Positions 1,524-50,957 of a stretch of 64,000 nucleotides of DNA are shown in pieces (position 1 is the stretch's first letter; each line of letters begins with the position of its first letter). This DNA is from Gammaproteobacteria bacterium TMED78 (GTDB lineage Bacteria; Pseudomonadota; Gammaproteobacteria; Steroidobacterales; Rariloculaceae). The notes beneath the pieces were generated by a model. That model was not told the origin of the DNA. It did no database searches and saw nothing but the letters and a program-made list of their open reading frames with translations. Where the stretch lies: NCBI GenBank assembly GCA_002171615.1, contig NHEF01000021.1, positions 38,574-102,573 of the forward strand. The letters are read 5' to 3'. Both the position numbers and the translations under genes were made by a program.

Positions 1524-2465
1524 TTAGCTCCAAATACTAAATTCCTGTAAAACTTTTTTTGGCTTAAGTATACAGTCCTTTGTTAAAGCTCCTATACCAA
1601 GTAAACTATTATCTTTAGTATAAATTCTTGAATCTCCAGAAAAAAAATTAGATTTAATATAAACACTCTGGCCATGTAGAAATTTTTTTGCTTTATCATC
1701 AGATAAATATAAAGAAGGGATATTTTTTAAAGCTTGGTCTATATCTAAAATAAAATTATCTATTACATATTGATTACTTAAGAGGCTCTTTTCTAGAAAA
1801 TCAGGATCAAACATTTTATTTTTATTAAAAGGCTCTAATGATGACCTATGTAATGACCAAACATGACCATAGGTTCCGATATATTTAGCAATATCTTCTA
1901 CCAATGTCCTAATATATGTACCCTTAGAACAAGTAACAGTAAAACTAAGCTTTGGCCAATAAAAATAATTTAATTTTATAGATTTTATTTTTATCTTCCT
2001 AGGAGGTCGATCAACAATTTTTCCCCTTCTTGCCAAATTGTAAAGTCTCTCACCGTTATATTTTAGAGCAGAATACATAGGAGGAATCTGTTCTGACTCC
2101 CCAATAGTTTCTTTCAAAACAGAATTAATAAACTCTAAGGAAAAACTAGAACAATTAGATTTGTTAAGGATCTTTCCTTCTCTGTCTCCTGTATCTGTTG
2201 ACTCTCCTAATTTAGCAACCACCTCATATGTTTTATCTGAATCTAAAAGATAAGAACATATTTTAGTTGCCTTTCCAAAACAAACCGGGAGCATCCCTGT
2301 AGCCAATGGATCTAAACTACCAGTATGTCCAGCTTTTTTTGCTTTAAATATTTTCTTAATTTTTTGTAAAGTTTTATTTGAAGTATCATACAAAGGCTTG
2401 TTTACAAGCAAGATACCATTAATTTCATAAGACTTTTTAAAGCTATTTTTTATTGATTGCTTCAT
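1524..2465 (-). CDS. truB: tRNA pseudouridine(55) synthase
   Basis: 313 aa with the motif GHTGSLDPLATGMLPVCFGKATK, containing the catalytic Asp; rbfA-truB-rpsO synteny. Confidence 0.95.
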   Translation of the reverse strand: MKQSIKNSFKKSYEINGILLVNKPLYDTSNKTLQKIKKIFKAKKAGHTGSLDPLATGMLPVCFGKATKICSYLLDSDKTYEVVAKLGESTDTGDREGKILNKSNCSSFSLEFINSVLKETIGESEQIPPMYSALKYNGERLYNLARRGKIVDRPPRKIKIKSIKLNYFYWPKLSFTVTCSKGTYIRTLVEDIAKYIGTYGHVWSLHRSSLEPFNKNKMFDPDFLEKSLLSNQYVIDNFILDIDQALKNIPSLYLSDDKAKKFLHGQSVYIKSNFFSGDSRIYTKDNSLLGIGALTKDCILKPKKVLQEFSIWS

Positions 2466-2799
2466 CTATAAGTTTACTAATCCTTATGCTCGTGTCAGGA
2501 CCGCTATCTCTCTCAAAAATTAATTCTGGTACATTTCTAATTTTCATCTTTTGACCAAACTTTTGCCTTATAAATCCTTTGGCACTATTAAGTGCAGCTA
2601 ATGTTGATTCCTCTTCATTATTTTCAAGATCCAATGTACTAAACAGTACCAAAGCCTTTCCTGAAGAATCGTTCATTGTAACACTACTAATTGTTATCCC
2701 CCTTAATCTGGGATCTTTAATGCCTTGTTGTAGTAGGTTATTTATAAATCTTTGTAATTCAGAGGCAATTCTAATATTTCTTGAGAACTCCCTAGGCAT
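2443..2799 (-). CDS. rbfA: ribosome-binding factor A
   Basis: 118 aa; N-terminus RNIRIASELQRFINNLLQQGIKDPRL is typical of RbfA; lies between infB and truB and overlaps truB by 23 nt. Confidence 0.93.
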   Translation of the reverse strand: MPREFSRNIRIASELQRFINNLLQQGIKDPRLRGITISSVTMNDSSGKALVLFSTLDLENNEEESTLAALNSAKGFIRQKFGQKMKIRNVPELIFERDSGPDTSIRISKLIDEAINKK

Positions 2800-2801
2800 A
2801 A

Positions 2802-5390
2802 TTAGATTGATCTAGCAACTTCTGAGCGATCAAAACACTCAATCTGATCGCCAGGTTTTACATCATTATAATTTTTAACACCTATACCGCATTCAGTACC
2901 AGCCCTAACTTCCTTGACATCATCTTTAAACCTTCTAAGAGACTCAAGCTCGCCTTCATAAATAACAACATTATCTCTAAGGACTCTTATAGGCTTGGTA
3001 TGCTCCATATAACCATCAATTACCAAACATCCAGCAATATTACCAAATTTAGGAGCCTTAAAAACATCTCTTACTTCTGCCAAGCCAACAATTCTCTCTT
3101 TTATCTCTGGAGCTAATAATCCGCTAACAATTACAGAAACATCATCTAACGCTTCATAAATTACACTGTAATATCTGACATCTAATTTTGATTCTTTAAT
3201 AGTTTCTCGAGCACTAGAATCTGCTCGTACATTAAATCCAATTACTATAGCATTTGAAGCAATAGCTAGCTGAACATCTGATTCTGTTATTCCCCCAACA
3301 CCATCTAAGACTATATTTACAGTAACCTCCTCATTCGAAATTTTCTGAAGAGCATCTTTCAAGGCCTCGGTACTTCCTTGAACATCAGCTTTGACTAATA
3401 TAGATAATGATTTATTACCTCCGGTAGCGCTAGTGCTAAAAATATCCTCGACAGAAGATGATTGCTGACTTGCCAATTTCAGACTCCTTTCTTTATTTTG
3501 TCTAAATTCTGCCACTTCTCTAGCCTTCTTTTCGTTAGGAACAACTAAAACATTATCACCAGCTGAAGGTACTCCAGATAGGCCAAGGATAACTGCTGGT
3601 ATTGATGGGCCGGCCTCATTCAAGGCTGCACCTGACTCATCAAACATAGCCCTAACCCTGCCATATTCATGTCCAGCAAGAAGGACATCACCACTCTTTA
3701 AAATACCTTGAGTAATAAGAACTGTTGAAACAGGCCCCCTGCCTCTCTCTAGTGTGGCCTCCACAACAACGCCGGAAGCATTGCCAGAATGTGGCGCCTT
3801 AATATCAAGAATCTCAGACTGAAGGAGGATAGCTTCGAGCAAGCCATCAATTCCTTTACCAGTCTTAGCAGAAATTGGAACAAATAAAGTATCTCCACCC
3901 CACTCTTCAGAAATAACTTCATGTTGAGATAATTCATTACGAATCTTTTCAGGATCAGCTGTATCTAAATCTATTTTATTAATTGCAACTATTAATGGAA
4001 CAGATGCAGCTTTTGCATGCTCAATTGCTTCTATAGTCTGAGGCATAACTGAATCATCTGCAGCAACAACCAAGACCACAATATCAGTAATTTGTGCACC
4101 TCTAGCTCTCATCGCAGTAAAAGCAGCATGGCCGGGTGTATCTAAAAATGTAATATTGCCCTTATCAGTCTTAACATTGTACGCACCTATATGCTGAGTA
4201 ATACCTCCAGCCTCTCCACTTGCTACTCTAGTTGTTCTAATGAAATCAAGTAAAGATGTTTTGCCATGATCAACATGTCCCATAACTGTAACTATAGGAG
4301 CTCGAGCCTCCTCCCCTTCTGGACTAATGTTCTCTTCTAATGATTGCTTTAACTCGTCCTCAATACCGCCCTCACTTTGTATCTTAGGAACATGACCAAG
4401 CTCTTCCACAATTAATATTGCAGTATCTTGATCTATAGTCTGATTAATTGTAACCATAGTGCCCATATTCATCGCTACTCTTATAACTTCACTAGATTTC
4501 ACAGCCATTCTTTGGGCTAAATCAGAAATGATAATTGTCTCTGGTATAATAACTTCTTTAATCTGAGGAGCTGTAGGTTTCTCAAAGGCATGATGAGATT
4601 CCTGATTTACATGAAGGCTGCTTCTTCGTGCCTTAGTCCTCTTTCTTCTAAGTTGAGAACCTTCAGCTACGTGAAGAGTGTGATCCTTTTTTTTATTCTT
4701 AGGCCTAACTTTTTCTTTTTGCTTTTTTGTTTTTTCCTGAGCTTTATCCTCTCTGAGCCTCTCTTCTTTATCTTCTTTCAATTTTTTTGAGACTTCCTGA
4801 TTTTCATTAGGAACAATTTTCTTATCTTCACTGACATCATCTATAATCTGCGGTTCCGATAAAGGGCTAGTTGTTGATTTAACTTGTAATTTAGGTTCAG
4901 CCTCTAACTTCCTATCTTCTAATGCTTCATCACTAGGAGGTTTGCTATCCTGGGTATCTAATACAATTCCCTTATCATCTAGAGGGGTGCTCTCGTCTTG
5001 TTTTAACCTTAACTCTTCTTCTAATTTAATATTTTTTTCATTTAAAGCATCTTGTTCAAGCTTCGCCTGATTTTCTAGCTCATCTCTTTTAACATAAACT
5101 CTTTTTCTTCTAACTTCTATATTTATTGTTCTTGACCTACCCTGACCTGTTGCTAGTTTTAACTCACTTTGAGATTTCCTTTTTAGAATAATTTTTTTTG
5201 GGCTTGATAAAGTAACCTGGTCACGACCATGTGATTTTCTTAAATGAGCTAGAAGCTGAACCTTAACGTCTTCTGTTATCTTATCTTCTCCTCCATTTAC
5301 TTCTATGCCCGCCTCAGATAATTGAGAGATCAATTTATCAACTGGTATCTTTAGCACCTCAGCAAAATCTATTACTTTGATATCACTCAT
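2802..5390 (-). CDS. infB: translation initiation factor IF-2
   Basis: 862 aa; GTPase motifs [19 protein letters not shown] and NKID; charged Lys/Glu-rich N-terminal region; nusA-infB synteny. Confidence 0.97.
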
Positions 5391-6918
5391 TTACGTTGCC
5401 TTTTTCCTTGTCTGATGATTTTTCTTCTTTATCATCAAACCAGTGAGCTCTAGCTTTCATAATAATTTCTGCCGCCTTTTGAGCATCAAGACTCTTAATA
5501 ACCTCAAGATCAATAACTGATTGTTCTGCTAAATCTTCTCGTGTAATAACTCCTTTTGAGGCAAGTTCAAAAGCTAATTCTTTATCCATACCATCTAATT
5601 CTAATAAATCTTCAGATGGCCCAGACTGATCTATAATTTCTTCATTAACTAAAGCCTGAGTTACTAAGATATCTCTTGCTCTTGATCTTAACTCGTTAAC
5701 TATCTCTTCATTAAATTCTTCAATAGCTAAAAGCTCATTAGTCGGGACATAGGCTACTTCTTCAATTGAAACAAAGCCCTCTTGAACTAAAATAGAAGCA
5801 ACATTCTCATCAACATCAAGATCATCCATCAATTTATTAATTAATTCTTTAGATTCCTGATCATTCTTTTCTTCTGCATCCTTTTCAGTCATAACATTCA
5901 ATTCCCAGCCAGTTAATTCACTAGCTAATCTTATGTTTTGTCCTCCCCTTCCAATCGCCTGAGATAACTTTTCTTCATCTACGGCAATATCCATGCTGTG
6001 AGCTTCTTCATCCATGACAATAGATAAAACATCTGCCGGAGACATAGCATTTATAACAAATTGAGCAGCATTATCATCATGTAAGATAATATCTACCCTT
6101 TCTCCAGCAAGCTCATTAGAAACTGCCTGAACTCTTGATCCCCTCATGCCAACACAGGCTCCAACAGGATCAATCCTAGAATCATTACTCTTGACTACAA
6201 TTTTAGCTCTTAGCCCTGGATCTCTTGCAGCTGAAAGTATTTCGATCAAATCTTGACCCACCTCAGGAACTTCTAGCTTAAATAGCTGGATTAAAAATTC
6301 TGGCGAAGTTCTAGTTAAAAATAATTGTGGGCCTCTGATCTCTGACTTAATCTCATAAAGAATTGCTTTAACTCTATCCTGAGGCTTAATGGGCTCTCTT
6401 GGAATCAAATTCTCTCTGGGTATAAATCCTTCTGCATTGCCACCTAAATCAACAAATATGCCGCCTCTATCCACTCGCTTGACTATGCCGTTAACTAGAC
6501 TCCCTACTCTTTCTTGAAACTCATCTATCACCTGCTCTCTTTCAGCTTCACGAATTTTTTGGACAATAACCTGCCTAGCTGTTTGAGCGGCTATCCTTCC
6601 AAATACTACTGAATCTATTGGTACTTCAACAAATTCGCCAGGCTTTGCATCCTGGCTTATCTCTAGAGCATCCTCAAGCCTTAACTCTTTATCAGGATCC
6701 TCTAGCTCTGAAGAATCATCAGCAAAAACTGCCCACCTTTGAAAGGTTTCATACCCTCCATTCTCTCTGTTAATAGAAACCCTAACATCCATCTCTTCGC
6801 CATGCTTTCTTTTGGTGGCAGTAGCCAGGGCAATTTCCATAGCCTCAAAAATAATCTCTTTACTAACTCCTTTTTCATTGGAGACCGCATCAACAACCAT
6901 TAGTATTTCTTTATTCAT
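5383..6918 (-). CDS. nusA: transcription termination/antitermination factor NusA
   Basis: 511 aa; S1 and KH regions ([26 protein letters not shown]; [21 protein letters not shown]) plus a C-terminal acidic repeat region. Confidence 0.97.
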
Positions 6919-7367
6919 ATCAACTCTTCATTTATTAATTTAGCTGTATCAATATCCTTGATAGGAATTTGATAGAAATTATCATTGGCAAATAAAGAAA
7001 CTGTATCAGATAGAGTATCTTTTAATATACCAGTCATTTTAATTTTTCCTTCAAAGGGAGACTTAAACTTAATATATATCTTAGAACCAGAAAATTTTAA
7101 AAAATGATCTTTAGTTCTTAATCTCCTATCTAAACCAGGTGAAGATACTTCTAAAATATATTTTTTATTGGACGTATCTTCTACATCTAAAAGTGCTCCT
7201 ATTTGATTACTAACAAAAGCACAATCATCAATGCCTACACCACTATCTTTATCTATAAATATCCTTAAAGTTTGATTTGAACCTTGATATTTATCTAAAT
7301 CAACTAACTCATACCCAAGTTGAGCTATTGGCCCCTCTAATAATTCAATCAAATCCTGTTTATTCAC
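6915..7367 (-). CDS. rimP: ribosome maturation factor RimP
   Basis: 150 aa; motif LEVSSPGLDRRL; first gene of the rimP-nusA-infB operon. Confidence 0.9.
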   Translation of the reverse strand: MNKQDLIELLEGPIAQLGYELVDLDKYQGSNQTLRIFIDKDSGVGIDDCAFVSNQIGALLDVEDTSNKKYILEVSSPGLDRRLRTKDHFLKFSGSKIYIKFKSPFEGKIKMTGILKDTLSDTVSLFANDNFYQIPIKDIDTAKLINEELI

Positions 7368-7514: not shown

Positions 7515-8945
7515 TTACCTCAACTGATTATTTTGGTCTGGAATATCGCTAACTGGTAAAAGAGACTCTAGCCTAGCTTTTATATCACTATAGTTTTGAT
7601 CAGAAGCCAAGTTATACCACTCATTCGGGTCTTCATGATGATCGTAAAGCTCTTCAGATCCATCAGAATATTTTATATACCTATAACGATCATCTCTAAT
7701 AGCATGATTTTTATAACCATATGTGCTTAAAGCAAAATGATTCCAATCTATATCTGGATTTTCAATTAACGGCCTTAAGCTTCTTCCCTCTAAATGATTA
7801 GGTATATCAAAGTCTATTAAATCAAGAAGAGTAGGATACAAATCCATTAAAGACACTACCTTATCAGTCTTTGTTCCTGCTTCCGTAATCCCTGGAGCAA
7901 CGATTATTAGAGGTACCCTTGTTGCTTCCTCCCATATAGTCTGTTTCCTCCAACGTAGTTTTTCTCCTAAATGCCAACCGTGATCAGACCACAGAACAAT
8001 AATCGTATCATCAGATTTCCCACTTTGTTCAAGCGCATCAATAAGGCGACCAACCATTGCATCAGCAAAACTTATACTTGCTAAATAAGCTTGTACAGCC
8101 TCTTCCCAAGTACCACTTTGAAGAACCCATTGATGAAGAGCAATCGGATCAAAACTATTGCTAGAAGATATCTTTCCAGCAGTAGGAATATCGTCTAAGT
8201 CAGAATCATTAACCAAGGGGAGCTGAATCTGATCAAGCGGATATAAATCAAAATACTCTGGAGCGTTATACCAAGGAAGGTGAGGTCTATAAATACCAAC
8301 ACCTATAAAACTATTATTATCATCCATATTTAAAATATTATTAATAGAATGAGTAACAATTTGGCCATCTCCAGTAGCCTCGTCCTCTGTTGCCATTCTA
8401 TGCCAATCAAAAAATCTAGACATAGGTGTTTGATTAGCTGGTCTATTAATTGGAGCTACTTCATCAGGAAGTTGTCTATCAATGGAGGGGTAATAGCTAT
8501 CCCAAGCATTCAAATCATTAAACCCCTTAAATGCTCGCGGATTATAAGTAGATGCATGAAATAACTTACCTGCTCCTTGTGTAGTATAGCCATTATCTTT
8601 CAAATGCTTTGGTATTGTTGGTGCATCATCAAAAATTTCAAGAGTCCGCCAATCTGGATTATTTAAATACACACCTGTAGAAGAAGGGGCTAAGCCAGAA
8701 AAAATAGCAGTCCTGGCAGGATTGCAAAGACTTGCAGGCGTATGTGCATTAGTAAATGTAATACCCCTTGAGGCAAGCGCATCTATATTTGGAGTCTTAA
8801 CTTGATCGTTGCCTCCAAGCGGCCCAACCCAGTCATTTAAATCATCAATCGCTATGAAAAGAATATTAGGACTAGAAGCCTCCTGTGAATTACAAAATAC
8901 AGGAAAAGCTATAAATAAAAATAAAAAAAGTATTTTTTTTGTCAT
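7515..8945 (-). CDS. exported Cys-type (formylglycine-dependent) sulfatase
   Basis: 476 aa with an N-terminal signal peptide. Sulfatase signature SLCNPARTAIFSGL (C-x-P-x-R) after the metal-binding IAIDDLNDW. A later motif WSDHGWHLGE is typical of the alkaline-phosphatase/sulfatase superfamily. Confidence 0.85.
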   Translation of the reverse strand: MTKKILFLFLFIAFPVFCNSQEASSPNILFIAIDDLNDWVGPLGGNDQVKTPNIDALASRGITFTNAHTPASLCNPARTAIFSGLAPSSTGVYLNNPDWRTLEIFDDAPTIPKHLKDNGYTTQGAGKLFHASTYNPRAFKGFNDLNAWDSYYPSIDRQLPDEVAPINRPANQTPMSRFFDWHRMATEDEATGDGQIVTHSINNILNMDDNNSFIGVGIYRPHLPWYNAPEYFDLYPLDQIQLPLVNDSDLDDIPTAGKISSSNSFDPIALHQWVLQSGTWEEAVQAYLASISFADAMVGRLIDALEQSGKSDDTIIVLWSDHGWHLGEKLRWRKQTIWEEATRVPLIIVAPGITEAGTKTDKVVSLMDLYPTLLDLIDFDIPNHLEGRSLRPLIENPDIDWNHFALSTYGYKNHAIRDDRYRYIKYSDGSEELYDHHEDPNEWYNLASDQNYSDIKARLESLLPVSDIPDQNNQLR

Positions 8946-8949
8946 TTAG

Positions 8950-9693
8950 CTACCTAGCGACTTGATCTTCGGCTAGAGCATAACACTCATACTCCAATAC
9001 ACGAAGATTTTCTTCTAGCCTTCTATAAAGAATCATACTCATTTCCCATGGCTCAGTATAAACCTCTGGATCTTCTAGGGTCACTTCATACTGCATATGA
9101 TTTGGCCCAATAGGGGTATATCTTTCAATAATATGTAATGAGGGGCTATGAAAGTTTCCTGACCTGTCTAGCCATGTCTCATCAGTAAAATGAACCACAT
9201 CAACTACAAGTGAGTCGCCTTCCCAAGATCCTCTAGAGTCTCCCATATACCACTGAATAGGACCAGGAGGATGCTCACTATCCATAAAAATATTTCTAAT
9301 AGTATGAACCCACTCATAAGTCATAATGACTTGATCTTCAGTCTGGAGAATTTGAAATGGATATGGCATGTAAGTAATCCTAGGTACGCCAACTAGTTTA
9401 CAGTTAGCCTCAGGATCATCTAATAATCTATTTTCATAATTGATGTCCCTTTGTTCTAATGCCCATTCTTGATAAGGAATTTCGTTTCCCTTAACTACAC
9501 CTATACCCGCGGGAATACCAAAGTCAGAACTACGATCTTGAATATTCCAAACAGCATTTCCTAAAGCTTGCCATATGCCTTCTATAATTGGATGACCTAA
9601 TTCATTTCTTGGGACTTCATAATTTTGAGAAATAGCAATATCTGAAGAAAGAATAGATAAAATTAAAATAAGTTTAAAATAAACGCTATACAT
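8950..9693 (-). CDS. exported protein of unknown function, Cys-pair family (paralog A)
   Basis: 247 aa with a signal peptide. Paralogous to 20899-21627 and 10093-11019: shared GDSxGxWEGD.LVVD...F.D.TWLDRSGNFHS..L.IIER block and a conserved Cys pair (ANCKLVGVPR ... YECYAL). The gap to the sulfatase gene is 4 nt. Confidence 0.8.
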   Translation of the reverse strand: MYSVYFKLILILSILSSDIAISQNYEVPRNELGHPIIEGIWQALGNAVWNIQDRSSDFGIPAGIGVVKGNEIPYQEWALEQRDINYENRLLDDPEANCKLVGVPRITYMPYPFQILQTEDQVIMTYEWVHTIRNIFMDSEHPPGPIQWYMGDSRGSWEGDSLVVDVVHFTDETWLDRSGNFHSPSLHIIERYTPIGPNHMQYEVTLEDPEVYTEPWEMSMILYRRLEENLRVLEYECYALAEDQVAR

Positions 9694-14780: not shown

Positions 14781-16013
14781 GTGAGAGTTGGAACACACGG
14801 AATGATGCAGGTCGACTATGAGCAAAGAATAGATATGGACCGCATGAGAAAATATAGAGAAGGTCGTATACAAAAATATATGAATGAATTTGATGTTGAT
14901 TGTCTTTTACTGTTTGAGACAGGTAACAAAAGATACTCTACCTCAACTGCAGTAGCTTCACCTCAGGTTTGTAATATGGGTCGTTATGCCATTGTACCGC
15001 GAGAAGGAAGGCCACATATTTTTGGTTTTGGATCTGAAGTTGCGGCAGAAAAACTTTATTCTCCTTGGGTTAAAGATACAACCTTCCCAGCTCATGGAAC
15101 AATGCATGGTGCTCTTCCAATGGAATGGGAGTGCTATAGAGATTTTCTTAAAGACCTAGATATGGTTCTTGATAACCATAAGATGGATAAAAAGAAAGTG
15201 AAAATAGGTGTTGATATAGCTGAAGCACAAATCATGTTAGCCATGATCAAAGAAGGCTATCAAGTTGTTGATGGACAAAATGTTATGCAACATGCAAGAT
15301 CAATAAAAAATGAAGATGAAATCATGAACATGAAGCATGGTGCTGCAATTGTTGACGGTGCATTTCATAAGATTGCTCAAACTATAGCACCAGGAATGAA
15401 AGAAAATGATCTTCAGGCAGTTGCCTCGCACGAAATGCATAGACTAGGATGCCAATGGGTTCATAATGTCCAAGTCACAACTGGAAATAGGACACATCCT
15501 CATCCTCACCTAAGCTCTGACCGTCTAATACAACCTGGAGATATGATTTTTATGGATATAGTTTGTGTATTCAATGGATATCTTACTTGTGTATATAGAT
15601 GCTTCTGCTGTGGAGAGCCTAACCAAAAGCAAAAGGATATCCATGCACAATGTCTTGAATATCAATTAGGTGGTATTGAAGCAGTTAAGCCTGGCCTTAC
15701 AACAGCTGATGTTTGTCTTGCATGGCCAACAGCTAAAACCATGGGTGCTAAAAATGAAATGGAAGTTTTTGGACTCCAGTATGGCCATGGTTTGGGAGTT
15801 GGTTTATGGGAATTTCCTATAATGTCAAGAGCCTATAGTCTTGATCACCCAGTTAACATTGAACCAGGTATGGTATTTGCCTTAGAAACTTATGCAGGCA
15901 TTGGCTTCGATGGTGTAAGACTGGAAGATGAAGTTGTTGTAACTGAAACAGGGATCGAGGTTATTACAAAATTCCCTACCGATAAACTGATCGGGTGTGG
16001 GATGTCATATTAG
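14781..16013 (+). CDS. M24 family (creatinase/Xaa-Pro peptidase fold) hydrolase with an atypical metal site
   Basis: 410 aa with pita-bread fold motifs: GDMIFMDIV (first Asp), YGHGLG (His), FALETY (Glu), VRLEDEV (Glu). The second canonical Asp position reads GYLTC (Cys). GTG start preceded by AGGAGAG. Confidence 0.8.
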   Translation: MRVGTHGMMQVDYEQRIDMDRMRKYREGRIQKYMNEFDVDCLLLFETGNKRYSTSTAVASPQVCNMGRYAIVPREGRPHIFGFGSEVAAEKLYSPWVKDTTFPAHGTMHGALPMEWECYRDFLKDLDMVLDNHKMDKKKVKIGVDIAEAQIMLAMIKEGYQVVDGQNVMQHARSIKNEDEIMNMKHGAAIVDGAFHKIAQTIAPGMKENDLQAVASHEMHRLGCQWVHNVQVTTGNRTHPHPHLSSDRLIQPGDMIFMDIVCVFNGYLTCVYRCFCCGEPNQKQKDIHAQCLEYQLGGIEAVKPGLTTADVCLAWPTAKTMGAKNEMEVFGLQYGHGLGVGLWEFPIMSRAYSLDHPVNIEPGMVFALETYAGIGFDGVRLEDEVVVTETGIEVITKFPTDKLIGCGMSY

Positions 16014-16025
16014 AGGGTTAAATTA

Positions 16026-16601
16026 ATGGCACGTATAAGATACTTAGCACCAGATGAAATTGAAGATAAAGAAGTAAGGGAATGGCTTGAGGAATCAATG
16101 GAAACAGGTCATCCTGGTCCAGAAAATCAATCTATTCGAGCGCATCAGCCAGATGTAATGCGTGCATTTACTATAAGCCGTAAGTTACTTTTTAATAAGA
16201 AAACTAATGTGGGTGTTGTTGAGACAGAGCTAAAAGAATTAATAAGATATCATATAGCTCGAAGTCTCAACTGTGAGTACTGAAGTAATCAAGGTATCGC
16301 CCGTGAGGTGAATAAAGACAAATCACATAGACTCAATCAGCTTCAAAAATATAATGATTCTGATCTATTTACTCTTCGAGAAAAAATAGCTTTACGTTAT
16401 ACAGATACCATACTATGGAATCCAGACTTAGCTGATGATGAGCTTTGGAAAGATTTACATAATGAATTTACAGAACCAGAAATTGTTGAGATCGGTTATT
16501 GGGCAGGCTTTACCTCTGGTGGCCAAAGATGGCTTCATACTCTTCACTGTAAACAAGGTGAATTAGCTGCTCACATTGAAGAAAGAAAGAAAAATAAATA
16601 G
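16026..16601 (+). CDS. carboxymuconolactone decarboxylase/AhpD-like protein interrupted by one in-frame TGA (candidate selenoprotein, alternatively a pseudogene)
   Basis: ORFs 16026-16283 and 16308-16601 are in the same frame (offset 282 nt), separated only by the TGA at 16281-16283 and 8 sense codons. The context ELIRYHIARSLNCEY-TGA-SNQG puts the TGA at the second Cys of the family CxxC motif. The combined length of about 191 aa is normal for this family. Confidence 0.6.
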
Positions 16602-24110: not shown

Positions 24111-24551
24111 ATGTTACTAAAAAATACAATATTCACTTCATTATTGCTAATACTTATGAGCATAACTAGCGTTAATGCACAAAGCTTATTAAATGCTAAT
24201 ACTGCGTCAGAATCTGAACTTTCTGGCATTCCTAATATTAATAATGAGGTAGTTCAATTAATTATAAATTCTCGTCCATTTGCTACATTTGGAGATCTTA
24301 ATAATCAATTAAGTAACTTAATGAGTGATAATGAATTAGAAGGCATCTATGCAAACCTTTTTGTACCTCTTAAATTAAATAGCGCTTCTGATGATGATAT
24401 TCAATTAATTCCAGGTGTAGGTAGCAGAATGGCTCACGAGTTCGAAGAATATAGACCTTACACAAGTATGGATCAATTTAGACGTGAAATTGGAAAATAT
24501 GTAGATGAAGATGAAGTTGCAAGATATGAAATGTATGTAATTTTAGAGTGA
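24111..24551 (+). CDS. exported ComEA-like protein with two helix-hairpin-helix units
   Basis: 146 aa; signal peptide (...SVNA/QS); two units LNANTASESELSGIPNINNEVVQLIINSRPFATFGDL and LKLNSASDDDIQLIPGVGSRMAHEFEEYRPYTSMDQF. Good SD (AAGGAG) upstream. Confidence 0.65.
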   Translation: MLLKNTIFTSLLLILMSITSVNAQSLLNANTASESELSGIPNINNEVVQLIINSRPFATFGDLNNQLSNLMSDNELEGIYANLFVPLKLNSASDDDIQLIPGVGSRMAHEFEEYRPYTSMDQFRREIGKYVDEDEVARYEMYVILE

Positions 24552-50882: not shown

Positions 50883-50957
50883 TGGCGCTCCCTAGGGGAA
50901 TTGAACCCCTGTTTCCGCCTTGAGAGGGCGGCGTCCTAACCGCTAGACGAAGGGAGC
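50883..50957 (-). tRNA. tRNA-Glu, anticodon CUC, CCA encoded
   Basis: The minus strand reads GCTCCCT-TC-GTCT-AGCGGTTA-GGAC-G-CCGCC-CTCTCAA-GGCGG-AAAC-AGGGG-TTCAATT-CCCCT-AGGGAGC-G-CCA. The cloverleaf folds cleanly and closely parallels E. coli tRNA-Glu except for C34. Confidence 0.9.

Follow-up and report, generated by a model that had tools for sequence, protein, structure and literature searches.

A TGA-interrupted AhpD-like gene from a marine gammaproteobacterium very probably encodes a selenoprotein with a CxxU motif

Two open reading frames on the forward strand of the 64-kb stretch of DNA analysed here (the window) lie in the same frame and are parted by a single TGA, and the question raised by this locus is whether that TGA ends a protein, marks a damaged gene or is read as an amino acid. 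A sequence-only reading of the window had proposed the last of these, namely that the TGA stands at the second Cys of the CxxC redox motif of an AhpD/CMD-like protein, making it a candidate selenoprotein. The proposal is supported by our data: the TGA falls in a Cys column that is TGA in 77 of 80 related loci, the coding sequence beyond it is conserved, a conserved and covarying hairpin follows it, and a relative is listed among the GOS selenoproteins. On these grounds, we consider it very probable that 16026-16601 is one gene in which the UGA at codon 86 is decoded as selenocysteine (Sec).

Translation gives one frame of 191 codons at 16026-16601 (+), with its start at ATG 16026, its terminal stop at TAA 16599-16601 and a sole internal stop at TGA 16281-16283. 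The ORF list cuts this frame into 16026-16283 (85 aa) and 16308-16601 (97 aa, with a GTG start). The residues around the break read ...ELIRYHIARSLNCEY-TGA-SNQG, and direct translation gives the spacing E71-x11-C83-x-x-TGA86 (E71-LIRYHIARSLN-C83-E-Y-TGA-S-N-Q-G). Glu71 is encoded by GAA at 16236..16238 (+); it is an invariant column in our family alignment (A2), lies 12 residues before Cys83 and corresponds to the catalytic Glu of the AhpD motif E-x11-C-x-x-C. The predicted redox motif C-E-Y-U occupies 16272..16283 (+), as TGT (Cys83), GAG, TAC and TGA (Sec86), and the C83, Y85 and C86 columns are invariant. The two same-frame ORFs, the E-x11-C-x-x-(TGA) spacing and a read-through product of about 191 aa, the normal length for the CMD family, had all been described from the sequence and are borne out by translation, the last also by Cys homologs of 187–196 aa. 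The description had added that the classical downstream His is not conserved, and indeed the residue four positions past the TGA is Gly90.

Elsewhere in the window, TGA serves as an ordinary stop, as had been claimed. It closes 7 of the 41 window ORFs of at least 200 aa, and the example originally given, the ORF at 24111-24551, does terminate with TGA at 24549-24551. A scan of the window for TGA-split frames produced 15 candidates, among which a redox motif or a plausible coding context was found only at 16281; the same scan gave no other selenoprotein candidate in the window.

A Shine-Dalgarno-like GAGGG, read from the sequence at 16013..16017 (+), lies 8 nt 5′ of the ATG and shares the last base of the preceding gene's TAG stop. 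That preceding gene (14781..16013, +), taken from the ORF list, is an M24 (Xaa-Pro peptidase/creatinase-like) gene whose cluster mates carry the name Xaa-Pro peptidase family protein; it is co-oriented with the selenoprotein frame and ends 12 nt 5′ of its start. The adjacency is kept only in loci L001, L002, L008-L010, L012 and L013, and the M24 gene may be an operon partner in the gammaproteobacterial clade nearest to the window. Neighbourhood clustering across loci, in which many spurious high-GC ORFs appeared, found no partner gene conserved across lineages, and the other neighbours are lineage-specific.

To see which residue relatives carry at the TGA column, the stop was replaced by Cys in the query and 5.8 billion proteins were searched. 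The search returned about 50 full-length homologs of 187–196 aa that are 50–58% identical to the query, many of them from Acidimicrobiia, together with a set of half-length fragments that are pieces of genes split in the same way. An alignment to Cys-containing homologs had been put forward as a check, and its outcome is clear: the roughly 50 full-length proteins have an invariant C-x-Y-C (C-[TVS]-Y-C), and its second Cys lines up with the TGA. An in-frame TGA at the same column was also seen in metagenome loci L001 (Tara, NCEY*SNQG), L004 (a 248-kb JGI contig, SCHY*GTMNTAQ) and L007 (NCNY*SKQE). When one GTDB genome was then scanned for each species, 80 loci were obtained, and the codon is TGA in 77 and Cys in 3, all three from Acidimicrobiia. 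The 77 TGA loci come from marine and other Gammaproteobacteria, Burkholderiales/Betaproteobacteria, Terriglobia/Acidobacteriota, Binatia and 'Deltaproteobacteria'; among the gammaproteobacterial ones are several complete 'Ca. Rariloculaceae' chromosomes, and OZ250159.1, OZ241971.1 and OZ253541.1 of this group bear the ortholog. Nearest to the window is L008 (Pseudomonadota MAG XB_MAG157, JAYZFC01, GC 0.36), with 88% identity and shared synteny.

These counts bear directly on the alternative that the locus is an ordinary Cys-type AhpD-like gene that has become a pseudogene, has suffered a strain-specific nonsense mutation or has been misread in sequencing or assembly. Such an explanation can draw on the fact that related MAG records show the gene as a pair of hypothetical ORFs, and on the lack of Sec machinery in the window. 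It does not sit well with a TGA at the same codon in 77 of 80 species-level genomes from several phyla, or with a conserved hairpin that is specific to TGA-bearing genes (described below). The exact 85-aa half was found on 30 contigs and the exact 97-aa half on 33, from several public sources, which makes a one-off assembly error unlikely; as regards the check for an error that had been recommended, the recurrence of the TGA on about 30 public contigs likewise favours a real TGA. Taken with the excess of synonymous changes downstream of the TGA, the 77 of 80 TGA loci and the recurring contigs effectively refute this alternative, and we give it a negligible probability.

That synonymous excess is seen when the window is compared with its nearest relatives. 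Downstream of the TGA, the window and L008 differ by 33 synonymous and 11 non-synonymous codons, compared to 18 and 10 upstream, and the corresponding downstream figures against L009 are 48 and 28. Columns that are invariant beyond the TGA in alignment A2 include G165-G166-Q167-R168-W169, W141 and F148. From the pattern of substitutions, we take the part 3′ of the TGA to be under purifying selection in this frame.

A second alternative is that the TGA is a true stop and that the locus makes two polypeptides, an 85-aa N-terminal one and a 97-aa C-terminal one re-initiated at GTG 16308, together forming a split AhpD-like protein. There is indeed an in-frame GTG start at 16308, and the hairpin discussed below could in principle modulate termination and re-initiation. 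However, the stretch from the TGA to the GTG comprises eight codons for S-N-Q-G-I-A-R-E, which is conserved in both Sec-type and Cys-type homologs, and this speaks against two separate polypeptides. Most other lineages lack an in-frame start codon near the position of the GTG, the Cys-type homologs are single chains, and a split would cost the CxxC centre its second redox residue. We consider the two-polypeptide arrangement very improbable, and return to the reading of one continuous selenoprotein.

If the UGA is decoded as Sec, a SECIS element might be expected just 3′ of it, and here the window taken by itself is uninformative. The minimum-free-energy fold of 16275-16350 shows no significant structure (z -0.55), and it passes over the conserved hairpin described below in favour of a GUGA/UCAC pairing; this fold was consequently dropped as a SECIS test, and comparative analysis was used instead. 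The weak GUGA...UCAC pairing is the one that had been noticed by eye in the sequence-only reading: it is indeed the minimum-free-energy choice, but it is not the conserved element, which lies at 16297-16311. The folding of the region after the TGA had been suggested as a check; the single-sequence fold is insignificant, and comparison across loci shows a conserved SECIS-like hairpin, in favour of the proposal. Rfam returned nothing relevant, either on the whole window at the gathering threshold or on 16240-16380 at E values up to 10.

The conserved element of the window (16297..16311, +) is the hairpin UCGCC-CGUGA-GGUGA, in which 16297-16301 pair with 16307-16311 to give a stem of 5 bp, including one G.U pair, around the loop CGUGA at 16302-16306. 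Its predicted energy is -5.2 kcal/mol, and judged alone it is no better than shuffles of itself (z -1.07, with 25 of 200 as good). We annotate it as a SECIS-like hairpin on the combined basis of fold energy, conservation, rare codons, distance as in E. coli fdhF, and compensatory changes in other lineages.

The comparative data are more telling. Hairpin onset lies 16-17 nt after the U of the UGA in 85 of 85 TGA-bearing loci, and the 48 nt from the UGA onwards give a gap-free alignment of 74 distinct sequences. A single hairpin register for all 74 fails, as pairs satisfy i+j=48 in the gammaproteobacterial clade and i+j=50 in the others; two classes were therefore tested apart, one from beta/acido/binatia lineages (50 sequences) and one gammaproteobacterial (24, including the window). 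In the beta/acido/binatia class, the stem has 8 pairs, columns 16-23 with 27-34, and 89.5% of cells are paired, compared to 19–61% for slid registers. Five of the 8 pairs change on both sides, in 48 such cells, with compensatory examples such as G-C to A-U at 21-29 and C-G to U-A at 17-33 and 18-32. None of 500 shuffles (0/500) matched the observed pairing or covariation in this class.

The gammaproteobacterial stem is shorter, with columns 17-22 pairing with 26-31, and its register is offset by 2 nt from that of the other clades. Here the stem is nearly constant and shows little covariation: four core base pairs are invariant in 24 relatives whose GC content ranges from 0.36 to 0.64, and the window and L008 have G.U at pair 19-29. 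The stem of the window, at 5 bp, compares with 6–9 bp in relatives.

Seven Cys-type homologs, with GC contents of 0.54–0.67, were found to lack the hairpin, the corresponding region giving -1.9 to -6.9 kcal/mol. The mean for the 74 distinct Sec-type sequences is -12.1 kcal/mol, and the difference from the Cys-type set has a Mann-Whitney p of 8.6e-6, a value to be read with caution, as the lineages are not independent. Codon choice in the window points the same way. The five hairpin codons are used in the window with fractions of 0.10 (ATC), 0.12 (GCC), 0.055 (CGT), 0.35 (GAG) and 0.07 (GTG), and the joint probability of these five rare codons, given the amino acids and a window GC of 34%, is 1.7e-5. 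The idea that the hairpin is a mere by-product of amino-acid conservation was rejected, as the Cys homologs encode similar residues without a hairpin and the window spends rare codons on it.

The loop was compared with the E. coli fdhF SECIS element, for which the genome sequence gives an apical loop GGUC at positions 22-25 when the U of the UGA is position 1. G23 and U24 are the bases that SelB contacts, and they are important for its binding. On the same count, the window loop has G at position 23 and U at position 24. The two elements are alike: each is a hairpin inside the coding sequence that follows closely on the UGA and bears an apical-loop G-U at positions 23-24. They differ in that the window stem is much shorter, at 5 bp, lacks a long lower helix and has no identified bulged U. 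It is the absence of the hairpin from Cys homologs, the use of rare codons and the fdhF-like loop distance that together make the short window hairpin credible. The sequence-only reading had held that its proposal would fall if no SECIS-like structure could be found; what we see instead is a conserved hairpin at the right distance, with compensatory changes, that is absent from the Cys homologs. The data suggest that a streamlined marine gammaproteobacterium of 34% GC accepts the cost of rare, GC-rich codons so that a minimal SECIS of 5 bp is retained, and in this respect the window hairpin neatly illustrates, on a small scale, selection at the RNA level within a coding region.

Sec insertion also requires dedicated genes, and the earlier statement that the window holds no selA, selB, selC or selD holds up. 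ARAGORN and tblastn with E. coli SelA, SelB and SelD detected no selA, selB, selD or tRNA-Sec in the 64-kb window or in 1.25 Mb of related loci plus window sequence. The sole SelB-like match is infB/IF2. The window spans about 56.5–120.5 kb of the 259,613-bp parent contig (ERZ27286368:k119_1194500); extension by 10 kb along this contig gave housekeeping genes only, and the approximately 8.5 kb beyond the window start have no Sec genes. Absence of Sec genes from the stretches searched is expected by chance.

The machinery result and the modest hairpin are the main points in favour of a further alternative, that the UGA is read through without Sec, either by a near-cognate Cys-tRNA or Trp-tRNA or with Cys supplied via the Sec machinery at scarce selenium, so that residue 86 would often be Cys or another amino acid. 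The window hairpin is short and weak (-5.2 kcal/mol), Sec machinery was not found in the window, and selenium is scarce in the surface ocean. On the other hand, TGA is an ordinary stop in the window, so that the code is not globally reassigned. The geometry is that of a SECIS element, with the loop G-U at the fdhF distance. Moreover, a hairpin that is kept by rare codons and is absent from Cys homologs is the pattern predicted by SelB-dependent decoding. We regard non-Sec read-through as unlikely, with a slim probability, and favour decoding of codon 86 as Sec.

What kind of protein would this be? The Pfam CMD family (PF02627) matches residues 42-89 with 20.2 bits (E 6e-4), short of its gathering threshold of 23, and several Cys homologs carry a precomputed PF02627 match. 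The best NCBIfam matches are NF053654 'GroundWater_YciW, YciW-related (seleno)protein' (E 7e-13; 48.6 bits, with the cut-off at 310) and NF041047 'GSU3128 family (seleno)protein' (E 0.068; 13.3 bits, with the cut-off at 110); both families are AhpD/YciW-related and can include selenoproteins. Judging by these scores, we take the window protein to belong to neither, and its subfamily to be one without an NCBIfam model.

Structural comparisons gave a consistent picture. The family profile from alignment A2 matched the PDB entries 2gmy (Atu0492; 2.3e-9), 6ohi (Bmp8; 6e-9) and 2ijc (1.1e-8), with further matches to PA0269/AhpD of P. aeruginosa and to several 'AhpD core' proteins. In the profile alignment, the CxxC of AhpD/CMD structures is in register with C83/U86, and Gly90 stands at the place of the classical His. 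The Cys homolog P0001, which is 58% identical to the window protein, was modelled with AlphaFold; the model is all-helical (pLDDT 72, pTM 0.69), and its top 35 Foldseek matches in the PDB are all AhpD/CMD-type, with TM scores of 0.50–0.55 on the query and 0.70–0.75 on the shorter targets. An all-helical fold and a common CxxC register are shared by the window family and the AhpD/CMD superfamily (PF02627; 1knc, 2gmy, 2prr, 3c1l, 7xw1). From profile and fold matches, we place the window protein in the AhpD/CMD superfamily.

Within that superfamily, a point of reference for the active site is M. tuberculosis AhpD, in which Glu118, Cys130 and Cys133 have the spacing of Glu71-x11-Cys83-x-x-Sec86. 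E71, C83 and U86 are present and invariant; the full E-x11-C-x-x-C-x3-H motif is not, its His position being G90, and this Gly (S-N-Q-G) occupies the His position throughout the subfamily, Cys forms included. The window protein thus differs from M. tuberculosis AhpD in having the predicted Sec for the second Cys, Gly90 for His and a Pfam score below the cut-off. It also differs from AhpD in genomic setting, as no AhpC-type partner gene is conserved beside the window gene or at the loci of its relatives.

A mechanism can be proposed on this basis. As the ribosome reaches the UGA at 16281, the hairpin at 16297-16311, 16 nt past the UGA and with G23-U24 in its loop, would recruit SelB with Sec-tRNA(Sec), and Sec86 would be inserted in place of termination. 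The product would be a thiol/selenol oxidoreductase of about 190 residues with an all-helical fold. Sec86, in place of the second Cys of AhpD, would act as the attacking nucleophile, with Cys83 as the resolving residue that forms a selenenylsulfide. The substrate reduced may be of the peroxide, disulfide or sulfenate type, after which the enzyme would be re-reduced by a cellular thiol system.

A lead to an alternative substrate class, as distinct from a functional assignment, is offered by the tetrabromopyrrole debrominase Bmp8 (6ohi/6ohj). This CMD-family protein has a similar length (195 aa), is the second-best PDB profile match with the Cys motifs aligned, and also appears in the fold search. 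However, identity is only about 16%, and no bmp-type cluster or halogenase was recognised around the window gene. We tentatively suggest, while thinking it rather doubtful, that the C-x-Y-U-S-N-Q-G subfamily is a distinct selenoenzyme with a substrate other than that of the peroxiredoxin-recycling AhpD, for example in a Bmp8-like reductive dehalogenation or in small-molecule reduction.

AhpD-like selenoproteins with a CxxU motif are not new. They were first reported from the Sargasso Sea in 2005, with 27 sequences (PMC1088965), and the GOS selenoproteome of Zhang & Gladyshev in 2008 listed 299 sequences of 'AhpD-like 1' (COG2128, CxxU), among the most abundant families (PMC2398784). AhpD-like, CMD-like and AhpD-related families of selenoproteins still appear in reviews from 2026 and in databases. 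The statement in the sequence-only reading that marine metagenomes have yielded AhpD-like selenoproteins is correct, and it extends to the present subfamily, one member of which, JCVI_READ_1093041160175, is found under 'AhpD-like 1' in the GOS supplement (...ECGYUSNQGTARS...GGQRWLKTL; PMC2398784). In a full-length comparison, this read and the window protein are 56% identical (E 3e-82), and the read has U at the aligned position; locus L059 matches its N-terminal 100 residues.

The window protein resembles 'AhpD-like 1' in having a CxxU motif with Sec second, in being of the COG2128/'alkylhydroperoxidase family enzyme' type and in its occurrence in marine metagenomes. Most of the listed entries examined are of a shorter NECEYU-IRAH type of about 130 aa in which the His is retained; against this type, the window protein gives only a marginal match (E 0.058) that covers the motif only. 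None of the subfamily motifs SNQG, PGPEN and GGQRW occurs in the Sargasso supplement of 2005 (PMC1088965). The subfamily had been recorded as a predicted selenoprotein by 2008, yet was never set apart or modelled, and what we describe here is a missed annotation, not a discovery. No new question is opened by it, given that AhpD-like CxxU selenoproteins have been catalogued since 2005-2008. Considering the frame, the Cys homologs, the GOS read and the profile match together, we annotate 16026..16601 (+) as a predicted complete selenoprotein gene of the AhpD/CMD superfamily, of the 'AhpD-like 1' (COG2128) kind, with Sec at codon 86; the Cys/TGA column, the hairpin and the downstream conservation identify 16281..16283 (+) as the putative Sec codon.

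As a group, members of the C-x-Y-U-S-N-Q-G subfamily have about 190 aa, are without the catalytic His, and carry invariant PGPENQ-IRAH N-terminal and GGQRW C-terminal segments. The Sec form occurs in marine Gammaproteobacteria, Burkholderiales, Terriglobia and Binatia, and is systematically mis-annotated in MAGs as two hypothetical proteins. The practical value of the present analysis is one of annotation, as orthologs in dozens of MAGs and in complete chromosomes have been deposited as two 'hypothetical protein' fragments; merging the halves would restore one redox enzyme and would flag these lineages as Sec users.

In the SECIS-like hairpin of the selenoprotein gene, we see a 2-nt register shift in the gammaproteobacterial clade relative to the beta/acido/binatia clade. 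When columns are counted with the U of the UGA as position 1, paired columns sum to 48 in the gammaproteobacterial clade (window 16297-16311) and to 50 in the beta/acido/binatia clade, as compared in alignments A4 and A5 of the hairpin region. The loop G is kept at position 23 or 24 despite this shift. The stem seems to have been rebuilt between the clades, rather than inherited base by base. One ortholog, at locus L022 of a MAG (VYEH01000099.1), carries a second in-frame stop, a TAA found 11 codons past the Sec TGA (L022:548-595; ..ARGAK*DPN), where relatives have GAA or GGA. This extra stop marks either a pseudogene of that lineage or an assembly error.

Upstream in the window lies a gene for an M24 Xaa-Pro peptidase/creatinase-like protein (14781-16013, + strand), which ends 12 nt 5' of the selenoprotein start. 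This adjacency is retained only in the nearest gammaproteobacterial relatives (loci L001, L002, L008-L010, L012 and L013), and the Cys homolog at locus L091 is likewise flanked by a distant creatinase/M24 gene, together with a creatininase gene. In 12 loci, among them those of the window's own clade and of five Burkholderiales, a 345-aa ORF also recurs close to the gene for the selenoprotein; in locus L011 it lies at 5502-6539, and in the window within ~4 kb of 16026-16601. Judged by its sequence, it looks like a putative Gfo/Idh/MocA-type oxidoreductase, and a functional link to the selenoprotein gene is possible.

Elsewhere in the window, the conserved rimP-nusA-infB-rbfA-truB operon occupies 1524-7367 (- strand), with rpsO and pnp next on the parent contig, just past the window start. 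The sole SelB-like match was spurious, and originated from infB of this operon. On the same strand are a sulfatase gene, whose product has a signal-peptide-like N-terminus, and adjoining secreted-looking uncharacterised ORFs (7515-8945 and 8950-9693), and a DUF6152 gene is close to this region on the parent contig. The sulfatase region may be a small cluster for polysaccharide or sulfate-ester utilisation.

The sole tRNA in the 64 kb is a tRNA-Glu with anticodon CUC (50883-50957, - strand). Across window 1-64000, the GC fraction drifts down from 0.36 to 0.32, GC skew is below 0 in nearly all 4-kb bins, and cumulative GC skew falls monotonically.
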